Sequence record: PP400781
DNA: 64,000 nucleotides
Origin: Escherichia phage FL20
Strand: one strand, 5' to 3'
Shown here one piece after another: positions 7,782 through 38,234 of this stretch. Numbering within the stretch: position 1 is the first letter of the stretch; each line of letters opens with the position of its first letter. The position numbers and the translations under genes were made by a program. The notes below the pieces were generated by a model, which saw only the letters and a list, made by a program, of their open reading frames with translations, did no database searches and was not told where the DNA came from.

Positions 7782-8576
7782 ATGCTTAAAGAAATGCTGC
7801 TCGAAGAAGCAAAACAGATCACCGTAGACGTTGCTCTCGATGACCTGTTTGAATCCGTCGAACTGTCGCCGGAAGTAAAAGAAAATTTTGGTACTATCTA
7901 CGCTCAGGCGGTAAAAGCTAATGCTGTTGCTCTGGCAGAAAGCCACATTGAAAAAATCGCCGCTAAAGCCGATGAACTGGTAGAATCAAAGGTCGAAGAA
8001 GCACGCACCGAGATTGAAACCAAACTGTACGAAGATGCAGATAAATTCCTGAATCACTTAGGCGCTAAATGGCTGGCAGAAAATAAAGAAGCCGTCACCC
8101 GTAATATTAAAGCGGATCTGTGCGAATCCCTGATTGGTTCTCTGAAAGATGTTTTCGTTACTCACAATGTTGTAGTACCGGAAGAATCTGTAGACGTTGT
8201 TGCTGAACTTGACGAAGCACTCAAAGAAGAAAAAGAAAAAACCTCTGAACTCTTTGATGCCAAACTGCAACTTGAAAGCGAAATTCGTGGCATGAAGCGC
8301 GAACAAGCGATCAATGAAAGCACTCGTGATCTTTCCGATACTCAGAAAGAAAAAGTAACCGCGCTGATTGAAGGTCTGGAATATAGCGAAACTTTCGATA
8401 AGAAATTAACTGCAATTGTCGAAATGGTTGCTAAGAAAGAAGACAAACCAGCGAAGATTGAAGAATCACTAAATACTGATGCCGACAAGCTGAATGTTAT
8501 TGCAGAAGCTGTCGAAGAATCAGAGAAAAAGGCAACTGTAGATTCCGGCGTATCCCGCTACCTGAATTTCATCTAA
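7782..8576 (+). CDS. 22: prohead core scaffold protein gp22
   Basis: 264 aa acidic coiled-coil protein; N-terminal block LFESVELSPEVK matches T4 gp22; synteny. Confidence 0.85.
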   Translation: MLKEMLLEEAKQITVDVALDDLFESVELSPEVKENFGTIYAQAVKANAVALAESHIEKIAAKADELVESKVEEARTEIETKLYEDADKFLNHLGAKWLAENKEAVTRNIKADLCESLIGSLKDVFVTHNVVVPEESVDVVAELDEALKEEKEKTSELFDAKLQLESEIRGMKREQAINESTRDLSDTQKEKVTALIEGLEYSETFDKKLTAIVEMVAKKEDKPAKIEESLNTDADKLNVIAEAVEESEKKATVDSGVSRYLNFI

Positions 8577-12212: not shown

Positions 12213-12800
12213 CTAAATATCTAACCAAGACAAGTCAGATCCGCCCAAGATTTTTTCGACGGCGGATCTATTTTCTTGATGATATAAGTTAAAACATGGT
12301 ATCCCATGTCTACGGGCAACATAAACAGCAATTCGAGTTCCTCCCGAAACGATTCCATTAACTTCTTTCGCCCAAAATAACACACAATCTACAGGATCAT
12401 CAAGTGTCTCACCTAAAACTTGAGCAACATTTCTAGAAAACAGATTTTGCATGTATAACGGTATAGAACGAGGATTATCATAAACTTGTTCTAATTCATC
12501 CATCGCCAGATTTTTTTGTTCTAAGGTTTGCCATGCAATCACATCATGACCGTTATGCTTGTGGTCATAAAACTTCCAATTTGGAATGAAAATTTTTCTA
12601 TAATCTGGATCGTAATATTTCATGAAAGCATTGTCCATACCGTAAGCCCCTCCAGAATGCGCTACAACGCGATTTTCTGACAATACCCTCCCAATGGTAC
12701 TAGCCATTATCAAAATGTCGCTAGGCGCTTTTCTAGAGCCTATTAAAGCACATCTACGAAGTGGTTTTACTCCAAATAGATCTTGTAACTGGTCAAACAT
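12213..12800 (-). CDS. DprA/Smf-like (SLOG-fold) protein
   Basis: 195 aa; motif HSGGAYGMD corresponds to the DprA Rossmann motif S-G-x-A-x-G-x-D; occupies the locus where T4 carries rnlB. Confidence 0.55.
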   Translation of the reverse strand: MFDQLQDLFGVKPLRRCALIGSRKAPSDILIMASTIGRVLSENRVVAHSGGAYGMDNAFMKYYDPDYRKIFIPNWKFYDHKHNGHDVIAWQTLEQKNLAMDELEQVYDNPRSIPLYMQNLFSRNVAQVLGETLDDPVDCVLFWAKEVNGIVSGGTRIAVYVARRHGIPCFNLYHQENRSAVEKILGGSDLSWLDI

Positions 12801-12953
12801 AATATTTCCTCCATAGAAAGCAATATCATACTACAAGTTAATAACAAATACAAGTATCCGCGTAGCGGAAGCGAGCACAGCGAGCAATAAAAACACTTCC
12901 AGTAATTGATTAATAAATGTTCGAAACAAATTTTTATTATTCTATAAGATAAG

Positions 12954-13128
12954 TCTTCGTTTTGATCATAATTTAATCACACATGTAAAAACTACACAAA
13001 AGGATATCGCTTCGCGAACTCCTACGGAGTATAACATTTGTGTTACAATATGTAGTGATTAATAATTAACCAAAGATACATTTTCTATGTTCTAAAGATC
13101 TTTCTTCGTTTTGATCATAATTTAATCA
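12954..13128. repeat. two copies of a 26-bp direct repeat (tcttcgttttgatcataatttaatca) about 150 bp apart in an AT-rich intergenic region (approximate)
   Basis: Perfect 26-bp repeat read directly; each copy is followed by a related cacatgtaaa element. Confidence 0.6.
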
Positions 13129-13181
13129 AACAGTATTAATATTGTGCACATGTAAACTAAAATTATGTTAATAACATATAC

Positions 13182-13206
13182 AAAAAAGCCGCCCCGAAGG
13201 ACGGCT
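13182..13206 (-). terminator. rho-independent terminator on minus strand (approximate)
   Basis: Hairpin agccgtcc-TTCG-gggcggct followed by T6 on the minus strand, immediately downstream of gene 13215-13652. Confidence 0.7.
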
Positions 13207-13214
13207 AATGTTAA

Positions 13215-13652
13215 TTATTTGTTGATAACGATCTGATTTCGGCGAATGGTAACATTACTCTTAGAGATGATCAGATCATCCGGCACTACGTTAGTTTTGT
13301 ATGGTTGGAAGCGAACAAGCATCTGATTGCGTTTAGACCCTTCCTTAATCTTGATTTCCATCTGGATATTGTTGCCTACGTGAGCAACCGCAATTTCACC
13401 TTTATTCTCATAGACCCACTTGCTGGTAACGTCTCCAGCAAAAGCCTTAATAACTTGCAATGCTTCGTCGTATGCGGTAGAGCTGTGAACTTTCAGAAGG
13501 CCAGCCGTAGAAAGACGGGAGCAGGTGATCGCCGGAGATTGCCAAACATCAACATTAATTTGCTCAATCAGAGTAACACCGCCCTGATCAACTGCTTTGA
13601 ATGCTTCGAACATTGCCTTTTTCATTGCTACGTGGTTTTTACGGAATTTCAT
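13215..13652 (-). CDS. hypothetical protein (145 aa)
   Basis: Clean ORF with RBS AGAGGTG; no recognisable motif. Confidence 0.6.
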   Translation of the reverse strand: MKFRKNHVAMKKAMFEAFKAVDQGGVTLIEQINVDVWQSPAITCSRLSTAGLLKVHSSTAYDEALQVIKAFAGDVTSKWVYENKGEIAVAHVGNNIQMEIKIKEGSKRNQMLVRFQPYKTNVVPDDLIISKSNVTIRRNQIVINK

Positions 13653-14334: not shown

Positions 14335-14361
14335 CAAAAAAAGCCACCCCGAAGGATGGCT
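14335..14361 (-). terminator. rho-independent terminator on minus strand after hoc (approximate)
   Basis: Hairpin agccatcc-TTCG-gggtggct plus T-tract; same architecture as the terminator near 13190. Confidence 0.7.
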
Positions 14362-14372
14362 GATAGATTTCA

Positions 14373-38158: not shown

Positions 38159-38234
38159 TTTTGATTCTCCTAGTTCGTTTCGGTATGTGTGTATTATAGG
38201 GGATCGGTGATCCCCTGTCAACAACTTTTCTGAA
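38159..38234 (-). promoter_or_regulatory. PeSL cassette copy 10 (GGGGATCggtGATCCCC palindrome)
   Basis: As copy 2. Confidence 0.75.

Follow-up and report, generated by a model that had tools for sequence, protein, structure and literature searches.

In the genome of Escherichia phage FL20 (PP400781), of which a stretch of 64,000 nucleotides (the window) was analysed, one 26-nt sequence, TCTTCGTTTTGATCATAATTTAATCA, occurs twice on the plus strand, at positions 12954-12979 and 13103-13128, in a non-coding gap of 414 bp (12801-13214) located between two minus-strand open reading frames (ORFs). The question raised by this locus is what these repeats are. The initial annotation, made from the letters alone, had described two perfect 26-bp direct repeats about 150 bp apart, and had proposed that they are binding sites for a regulator or duplicated promoter elements. 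The repeats were confirmed as exact matches, 149 bp from start to start, and as non-random and conserved: with up to three mismatches allowed the window still contained these two matches only, and none was obtained across 100 dinucleotide shuffles. Ungapped similarity around the 26-mers reaches 38 nt with 89% identity (12946-12983 versus 13095-13132). As shown below, the two 26-mers are almost certainly the cores of tandem copies of a module which forms a family in phages of the genus Krischvirus and has a homologue in an E. coli prophage integrated in ycdX. It can be said with high confidence that this module is previously undescribed; it can be classed neither as a promoter of a recognisable type nor as a site that depends on GATC. 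Our tentative reading, to which we give a probability of about one in three, is that the module acts as a structured RNA from the plus strand, its pyrimidine core masking purine-rich ribosome-binding sequences.

The module and its copies in phages and in a prophage

The window derives from an RB49-like T4-type coliphage of the genus Krischvirus, and among 58 GenBank records of this genus the gap is 94.7-99.8% identical. The genome-wide search for further copies proposed in the initial annotation yielded two more loci. Both fall outside the 64-kb window and were located in the near-identical genome of its closest relative, G5211 (MK327947.1), where pieces of the gap were found to recur by blastn and nhmmer comparison with the whole genome. 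Copy A (63.95-64.06 kb) lies between gp3 on the minus strand and ORF130 on the plus strand, and copy B (149.56-149.67 kb) is inverted, with the terminator of gp35 on one side and the late promoter of gp36, TATAAATA, on the other; in both, a divergent late promoter and gene abut the hairpins. A profile search of the 164 kb of G5211 gave these two and the two copies of the present locus, C2 (left) and C1 (right), and nothing more. C1 and C2 are tandem copies partly diverged from each other. The element is present at three to four places in all the 58 Krischvirus records, and no copy was found in phage records from outside this genus. In all likelihood the module thus constitutes a four-copy family in Krischvirus, situated at gene boundaries of the late region and represented by two tandem copies at the present locus. 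A downstream ORF is present for copy A (ORF130) and for the prophage copy only, C1, C2 and B being without one.

In one metagenomic phage (L008, IMG/VR UViG 3300045988_033703) a gene for a homing endonuclease of the HNH/AP2 type (2148-2681) was found between gp3 and copy A. The insertion sits exactly at the left edge of the element, between CAATTG and TCGC, and carries a promoter of its own (TTGACA-17-TAGATT).

Each 26-mer occupies columns 50-75 of an AT-rich unit with a fixed length of 78 nt, of which it is the core, and the unit is preceded by one or more perfect GC hairpins. Unit C2 (12905-12982, plus strand; nhmmer E = 6e-20) was aligned without gaps over the 78 columns with the A, B, C1 and prophage copies, and consists of Box1 (TGATTA), Box2 (GTTCGAAAC), AAGAT, the core TCTTCGTTTTG and a hairpin, TTGATCA-N5-TAATCA(C). 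Unit C1 (13054-13131, plus strand; nhmmer E = 1e-25) is built like C2 and has the 10-bp palindrome AAAGATCTTT intact. The invariant columns of the unit read AAGAT-3nt-TCTTCGTTTTG-T-A-3nt-TTTAA-CA. From Box1 (TGAYTA, invariant) to the end of the terminal hairpin there are 77-78 nt in the four phage copies and in most of those from prophages, at a sequence divergence of about 30%.

Upstream of unit C2 there is a single hairpin, TCCGC-GTA-GCGGA (12857-12869), which was called as terminator-like on the minus strand; on that strand a U-rich tail follows the stem, and the hairpin is located 3 nt upstream of a weak candidate promoter of the DprA-like gene. C1 has two hairpins recognised from the sequence, TCGC-TTC-GCGA (13007-13017) and ACTCC-TAC-GGAGT (13018-13030), and all three are invariant in 18 genomes. 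The TCGC-TTC-GCGA hairpin is common to C1, copies A and B and the prophage variants L017, L070 and L071, and RNAalifold showed compensatory pairs in it. The other hairpin has a perfect stem, yet its sequence is different in each paralogue (GTGCC/GGCAC, ACTCC/GGAGT, TCCGC/GCGGA, GCAACC/GGTTGC, GACGCTC/GAGCGTC). The full module can hence be described, with little doubt, as a non-coding element of about 125 nt in which GC hairpins of freely varying sequence are followed by the 78-nt AT-rich unit. Small ORFs were rejected as an explanation of the locus, those present being only 23-32 aa long, not conserved between paralogues and running across the freely varying hairpins.

A pattern scan of metagenomes returned Krischvirus contigs and, in addition, 13 contigs with a related element, which proved to be pieces of the E. 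coli chromosome. Among 5,426 complete E. coli genomes the element was found in 57, with one copy per prophage. The host prophage, of about 37 kb, is located in ycdX and encodes a large serine recombinase and a terminase of the lambda gpA type. Its element comprises two C(UUCG)G hairpins, a 78-nt unit and the sequence TTCTAAAGATACTTCTTCGTTTTGATGATGATTTAATCAAA, and is located in a non-coding region of 1.4 kb. To the left there are two genes with consensus promoters and at least eight iterons TTTTTGCCCCTGAAA; to the right there follow an invariant TTATAAATA, a ribosome-binding site, a 150-aa ORF, a regulator of the Rha/Ant type and the terminase. Between phage and prophage the unit is about 80% identical, and the flanks are unalignable. 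No homology was found between ORF130 and the 150-aa ORF of the prophage, which are unrelated proteins, and relatives of the latter are confined to E. coli and Shigella prophages. No element was found in plasmids, and searches of bacterial species other than E. coli gave chance hits only. Mimicry of a host sequence was rejected since the prophage is the only E. coli match.

The same prophage shares further DNA with Krischvirus. Its DEAD-box helicase is 82.7% identical at the protein level to Krischvirus UvsW (L050 16955-18445, from E. coli NZ_AP027634.1, versus G5211 104383-105888, corresponding to about 17.4-18.9 kb of the window), the phage uvsW gene being 4 kb from locus C, and its tail-fibre protein is 36-55% identical to the gp37 region of the phage, which adjoins locus B. 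A GIY-YIG nuclease gene is found close to the helicase in both phage and prophage, and a small prophage ORF is 45% identical to phi1p194. The shared helicase, tail fibre and small ORF indicate a recent mosaic exchange between lytic and temperate phages. In the prophage the iteron-like repeats, at least eight copies of (A)TTTTTGCCCCTGAAA together with four ATCACTT-N-GAT repeats, occupy L032 2553-2741 (equal to L049 ~8380-8570); they adjoin two back-to-back consensus sigma-70 promoters and may represent an origin or an immunity region.

Selection and base pairing

An alignment of 1.8 kb around the gap from 18 Krischvirus genomes was used to assess conservation. Within C1 and C2, 16 of 251 columns vary, as compared with 42 of 136 four-fold degenerate sites in both flanking genes (Fisher p = 4e-10) and with 33 of 77 spacer columns (p = 7e-13). 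Variation of the element is therefore about five-fold below that of four-fold degenerate sites; some of the spacer columns count too high owing to one shifted deletion and, in phage G2248, one replaced segment, and with this taken into account the contrast is still about three-fold. Two of the 26 columns are variable in each 26-mer. Since the columns of the element vary far less than four-fold sites and spacers, the module is very probably kept by purifying selection.

Such selection does not extend to the cacatgtaaa motif or to the GATC sites. The former, CACATGTAAA, which had been noted as a related element following each repeat, is indeed present near both; it adjoins copy 1 directly (12980-12989) and is separated from copy 2 by 18 nt (13147-13156), and is thus out of register with the 26-mers. 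Both occurrences are in hypervariable spacers outside the element, spacer 1 (12980-13003; 11 of 25 columns variable) and spacer 2 (13132-13181; 22 of 52 columns variable), and are not conserved. On these grounds the motif was rejected as a functional partner of the repeats. In G2248 (L058), 16 nt of spacer 2 at 13162-13177 are replaced, reading TCATGATGATTTGTGG instead of AATTATGTTAATAACA; the replaced segment is close to the ORF165 terminator, on its downstream side on the transcribed (minus) strand, and marks spacer 2 as a hotspot of recombination or indels.

The repeats contain GATC, to which the initial annotation had drawn attention. In G2248 and PHB13 (L063) the repeats are imperfect, copy 1 being TTGTTCAT and copy 2 TTGGTCAC: the A of TGATCA is changed to T at 12965 in copy 1 and to G at 13114 in copy 2, and both BclI/Dam sites are therefore destroyed. 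The prophage element reads AAAGATACTT and TGATGAT, so that both GATC sites are absent from it, and AGATCT is absent in C2. A role of GATC, Dam or SeqA was accordingly rejected, the sites not being conserved among phage and prophage copies. The paired loss of TGATCA in two phages may be due to coincidence, to selection against the site or to imported divergence.

Two alternative pairings were recognised within the unit on the plus strand. In the candidate long-range stem, columns 14-23 pair with columns 55-64 (13067-13076 with 13108-13117 in C1, and 12918-12927 with 12959-12968 in C2). Paired cells amount to 88.5%, as compared with 40-60% when the partner columns are slid by 1-3, and the paired cells and the covariation score were above those of 500 of 500 shuffles and of every slid control. 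Across paralogues pair 15:63 covaries as AU/GC/CG and pair 17:61 as CG/UA/UG; at 17:61 C1 has a C·A mismatch, and pairing is restored there by U-A in six genomes and by C-G in two, while the prophage variant L028 has U·G at this position. The second pairing is a terminal hairpin, TTGATCA-TAATT-TAATCAA (C1 13111-13129; C2 12962-12980), with 81.7% of cells paired, in which pair 61:73 is AU, GC or GU. As columns 58-64 also pair with columns 70-76, and column 61 covaries with both of its partners, the two helices would be mutually exclusive. All wobbles in the long-range stem and the terminal hairpin are G·U on the plus strand, where the opposite strand would have C·A, and the prophage tetraloops, which are UUCG, are located on the element strand too. 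Pairing, covariation and strand bias favour a structured RNA or a single-stranded DNA module. The suggestion that the repeats are sites bound by a regulator is weakened to this extent, in that complementary changes between boxes within each copy favour base pairing over sequence-specific recognition by a protein.

Beyond the unit, pairing with ribosome-binding sequences was predicted at two loci. In the minimum free energy fold of copy A, UCUUCGU pairs with ACGAGGA, the Shine-Dalgarno region of ORF130 (z = -2.3), and in that of the prophage an upstream CUCCAAAAGAAAG pairs with the Shine-Dalgarno region of the 150-aa ORF (z = -2.6). The loop between the two arms holds AATAAATA in copy A and an invariant TATAAATA in the prophage. 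Late promoters of RB49 tolerate A or T at the first position (PMC1524935).

Possible function and rival explanations

A structured RNA would be read from the element strand, which is the plus strand of the window, in antisense to the ORF165/24.3/hoc cluster. In such an RNA the invariant pyrimidine core UCUUCGUUUUG and the 5' arm of the terminal hairpin would pair either with the purine-rich box of columns 14-23 or with the 3' arm, and the core would be complementary to purine-rich sequences of the Shine-Dalgarno type. The ribosome-binding site would be hidden in the predicted fold of copy A (ORF130) and of the prophage, with a putative late-type promoter, (T/A)ATAAATA, between the masking and the masked sequences; because this motif lies between the two arms, only transcripts begun at it would be translatable. 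C1 and C2 would represent ORF-less copies, since no ORF follows them at the present locus, and might give a short antisense or non-coding RNA ending at the ORF165 terminator hairpin, or act in cis only. The repeat family, its anatomy, its conservation, the covariation and the strand bias are observed; that the module is transcribed, and what it would regulate, is inferred.

Several results weigh against a structured RNA that masks ribosome-binding sites. C1, C2 and B are not followed by an ORF that they could regulate. In the long-range stem the measures of pair count and pair type do not exceed those of shuffles, the covariation is drawn from only about four to five independent lineages, and in G2248 and PHB13 the change of A to T at column 61 of C2 breaks a pair. 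RNAalifold assigns a weak consensus energy to the 78-nt unit, -1.1 kcal/mol for the plus strand and -3.9 kcal/mol for the other strand. The pairs that would mask the Shine-Dalgarno regions show no covariation, and the masking segment differs, being the core in copy A and an upstream box in the prophage. Hybridisation of the core with translation initiation regions (TIRs) was generally no stronger than that of shuffled cores. For an RNA from the plus strand, no sigma-70 or late consensus promoter was found, in the orientation of the element, within it or up to 1.5 kb upstream of it in A, B and C. With window positions 12500-13500, a search of Rfam 15 (E <= 10) returned nothing but hits far below threshold, located over the terminator, and the prophage loci gave no Rfam match at the gathering score. 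Finally, the most divergent prophage relative has kept the hairpins and TATAAATA, and lacks the 41-mer.

A wider version of the RNA hypothesis, namely that the module is a self-contained riboregulator, horizontally mobile and common to a lytic T4-type genus and a temperate E. coli prophage, and would be a short plus-strand RNA with a core that switches helices and masks ribosome-binding sites in trans, is regarded as improbable. Candidate targets would be the TIR of gene 47, with AAAACGAAGA, and leaders of the ACCGAAACGAAAGGAG type. If such a riboregulator existed, it could provide the phage with a late shut-off of selected early genes, and the prophage could interfere with, or respond to, superinfecting RB49-like phages. 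To our knowledge, RB49-like phages are without MotA-dependent middle transcription, and the timing of their expression beyond early and late promoters is little understood. General targeting of early TIRs by antisense pairing in trans was rejected, the hybridisation energies being within the range of shuffled cores. The TIR of the gene 47 recombination nuclease (CAUCGAAAACGAAGAGAGGAAGAG; G5211 28774, outside the window) contains a 10-nt exact complement of the core, UCUUCGUUUU, and gives the strongest predicted duplex among 197 TIRs, at -19 to -25 kcal/mol, which alone is not significant.

Compared with an RNA, a DNA operator, in which the boxes TGAYTA, AAAGAT(C)TTT and TTGRTNA-N5-TAAYCAA would bind a phage or host protein controlling the neighbouring promoters, has the advantage that it needs no promoter for the element and is indifferent to orientation, which suits the inverted copy B. 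The boxes are conserved palindromes; purifying selection acts on the element, which is always beside a divergent gene start and, in A and B, within 8-16 bp of a late promoter; and the fixed length of the unit would suit helical phasing. However, within one genome A and B have the half-site TGGTTA and C has TGATCA/TGATTA, and these half-sites change in a complementary manner within each copy, which would be unnecessary for binding by one protein; the distance to the promoter is 8 bp in one and 16 bp in the other of copies A and B, that to the downstream TATAAATA is 24 versus about 62-95 nt, with indels among the prophage variants; the element contains no consensus match for IHF, DnaA or oriC 13-mers, and GATC is not conserved. 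An operator is thus possible and on balance unlikely. The same grade is given to a boundary cassette or recombination linker similar to the promoter-early stem-loop (PeSL) cassettes: on the minus strand the hairpins of the module would attenuate read-through from the preceding gene ahead of the promoter of the following one, and the AT-rich unit would serve mainly as homology for modular shuffling among phages and between phage and prophage. PeSLs populate the intergenic regions of RB49 and phi1 and mediate indels there, and hoc has been named as PeSL-associated (PMC2839356). Read on the minus strand, the C2 hairpin with its T-rich tail resembles a terminator and precedes the weak candidate promoter of ORF164 by 3 nt; all three Krischvirus loci are between an upstream gene bearing a terminator and a downstream gene with a promoter of its own; in one metagenomic phage the left edge of copy A is the exact insertion point of a homing-endonuclease gene; and the prophage with the element also shares uvsW and tail-fibre DNA. 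On the other side, the sigma-70 consensus promoter that defines a PeSL is absent and a profile of PeSL leaders misses the element; homology for recombination alone would leave selection at nearly every position, the fixed length and the compensatory changes unexplained; and on that strand the prophage has no gene that would be read into the hairpins, the UUCG loops being on the other one. If the module served as no more than a boundary or linker, the PeSL concept would have to be widened to include cassettes that lack a promoter.

The remaining explanations are less probable than these. That the module is a functionless relic, a recent local duplication together with DNA that hitch-hiked in phage-prophage exchange, we consider quite improbable. 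The power of conservation is limited in genomes that are 95-99% identical, the most divergent prophage relative is without the 41-mer, and C1, C2 and B are without a downstream ORF, but in the same alignment the elements vary five-fold less than four-fold sites or the adjacent spacers, C1 and C2, though different from one another outside the core, are each kept across genomes, the length of the unit is fixed with compensatory changes in its pairs, and the identity of about 80% between phage and prophage stands amid unalignable flanks. A replication element, that is a DNA-unwinding site or a single-strand hairpin site of a phage origin, is slightly less probable again. In its favour we counted that the three late-region loci are near genes which we take to flank T4 oriE, oriF and oriG (gene 5, uvsY and gene 34) and that copy B is antisense to genes 35 and 34, presumably like the T4 ori(34) transcript; moreover, the prophage element is about 450 bp from at least eight iterons TTTTTGCCCCTGAAA, and hairpins tolerant of G·T fit single-stranded DNA too. 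Against it, no promoter for a primer RNA, no DnaA boxes and no 13-mers were found, uvsY and gene 5 are 6.5 kb and 2.3 kb away, the positional argument is statistically weak, and we know of no mapping of RB49 origins, which was also counted against it. Consensus sites for DnaA, IHF and oriC 13-mers were likewise not found in the element, and the only direct repeats at the locus are the two that are 149 bp apart, an iteron array having at least three at regular spacing. The least probable explanation of all is a duplicated sigma-70 or late promoter with its -10 and -35 elements in the 26-mer. The locus is AT-rich intergenic DNA upstream of a gene, the reverse complement of cacatgtaaa contains a -35-like TTTACA and that of the 26-mer a TATGAT. 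TTTACA and TATGAT, though, are 13 nt apart in one of the copies as against 31 nt in the second, the sole alternative having a 15-nt spacer to TACTGT; cacatgtaaa is in hypervariable DNA; there is no well-scoring pair of hexamers at the homologous position and no WATAAATA in the gap. Consensus and weight-matrix scans of both strands of A, B, C and the prophage found no sigma-70 promoter at the homologous position, and the best weight-matrix scores in the element loci were 8-11, as compared with about 15-17 for the true PeSLs of the window; no WATAAATA late promoter was found at 12801-13214 on either strand. The proposal of duplicated promoter elements is not supported by these scans, which showed neither a sigma-70-like nor a late promoter recurring at an equivalent site across the family, whichever strand is read. 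As a whole, the interpretation in the initial annotation is partly supported.

Whichever of these explanations applies, a selected non-coding element at boundaries of the late region that is about 80% identical in an unrelated prophage is a candidate for an undescribed regulatory or structural signal, and it also serves as a marker that lytic T4-type phages and resident prophages continue to exchange DNA.

Related systems and neighbouring features

The closest known systems are the PeSL cassettes of RB49, phi1 and other T4-like phages (PMC2839356; Comeau et al. 2014, PMC4122927). They are defined by a near-consensus sigma-70 promoter (TTGACA, 16-18 nt, TATAAT) followed by a Shine-Dalgarno sequence and ATG (Arbiol et al. 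2010, PMC2839356). The module resembles them as a repeated intergenic module of about 100 bp from the same phages, with a GC-rich stem-loop and AT-rich DNA, which is found at gene boundaries in plastic regions (the hoc neighbourhood was named), is associated with indels and is common to several genomes; perfect GC stems of 5-7 bp are present in every copy, as in the stem-loops of PeSLs. In contrast to PeSLs, it has no consensus sigma-70 promoter on either strand, a PeSL of the window being TTGACA-ggggatcaccgatcccc-TATAAT; it has a conserved 41-nt core of its own and four copies, as compared with about 50 PeSLs; and the Shine-Dalgarno sequence and start codon of a PeSL are not found throughout, two or three copies of the element being without a downstream ORF. 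Descent from PeSL leaders was rejected: the reverse complement of the core, CATAACCAAAACGAAGAAAGATC, resembles CATACCGAAACGAAAGGAGAATC by eye, and an nhmmer profile of 12 PeSL leaders (from -10 to ATG) found about 30 other leaders and none of the four element loci at E <= 100.

Four textbook PeSL early promoters are located on the minus strand of the window at 38221, 36796, 33268 and 31136. They read TTGACA-GGGGATC(A/G)(C/G)(C/T)GATCCCC-TATAAT, with a G4/C4 stem between the hexamers, and have the common leader ACACAT(A)CCGAAACGAA..GGAGAATCAAA-ATG.

In T4, hairpins with an internal late promoter sequester the ribosome-binding sites of several genes, namely e, soc, 49 and I-TevI. Copy A and the prophage element are similar to them in that a pyrimidine-rich segment is predicted to pair with the Shine-Dalgarno sequence and (T/A)ATAAATA is between the arms. 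The differences are that the masking is here a prediction only, with arms 60-150 nt apart rather than in a compact hairpin, that neither a late promoter nor an ORF follows C1, C2 or B, the present locus thus being without an internal late promoter, and that the prophage is not T4-type, so that its TATAAATA may be a mere -10 region. Small antisense or immunity RNAs of temperate phages, such as P1/P7 c4, P22 sar and P4 CI RNA, are found upstream of ant/rha operons. The prophage copy is likewise upstream of a three-gene operon ending in a regulator of the Rha/Ant type and has a segment complementary to the ribosome-binding site of the first gene. It differs from these RNAs in showing no sequence or Rfam similarity to them and in having no defined promoter, processing site or terminator, and the phage copies are not linked to ant or rha. 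T4 reportedly has C(UUCG)G intercistronic hairpins (Tuerk et al. 1988), with which the module has in common very stable short GC hairpins, some of them having a UUCG loop, that are intergenic in a T4-type phage and are also present in the related prophage element; those of T4 are isolated, whereas here the hairpins are one component of a longer conserved module.

The gene order around the locus is gp23 and gp24 on the plus strand, then ORF164 (DprA-like), ORF165, 24.3, hoc and inh on the minus strand, and then uvsW. The DprA-like gene (ORF164, PHROG 768) occupies 12213-12800 and ORF165 (145 aa), which forms the right flank of the gap, 13215-13652. As both flanking genes are on the minus strand, transcription reads from right to left, and the repeats are upstream of the DprA-like gene, as originally stated, in the sense of the minus strand only. 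The description of a non-coding stretch of about 400 bp bounded by a terminator was borne out by the 414-bp gap and by the strong intrinsic terminator of ORF165 on its right side, which reads AGCCGTCC-TTCG-GGGCGGCT followed by T6 (13206-13187, minus strand). This terminator is annotated in several GenBank records, and inside the gap nothing else is annotated in the 58 Krischvirus records.

No consensus early or late promoter was found in the gap for the DprA-like gene. The sole candidate is a weak sigma-70 promoter predicted on the minus strand, TTGTAT (12853-12848), 17 nt, TATGAT (12830-12825), which is located left of C2, directly after the C2 hairpin; its weight-matrix score of 10.5 is the highest of the minus-strand hits in the gap. 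Expression of the DprA-like gene may rely on read-through past the ORF165 terminator. The terminators of ORF165 (13182-13209) and of the hoc side (14337-14364) are 89% identical copies (AAAAAAGCCRCCCCGAAGGAYGGCT). A 22-nt motif, TGTTAATAACAWATACAA, is found at 12836-12857 and 13166-13187, after two minus-strand stem-loops, and represents a further small intergenic repeat of this region.

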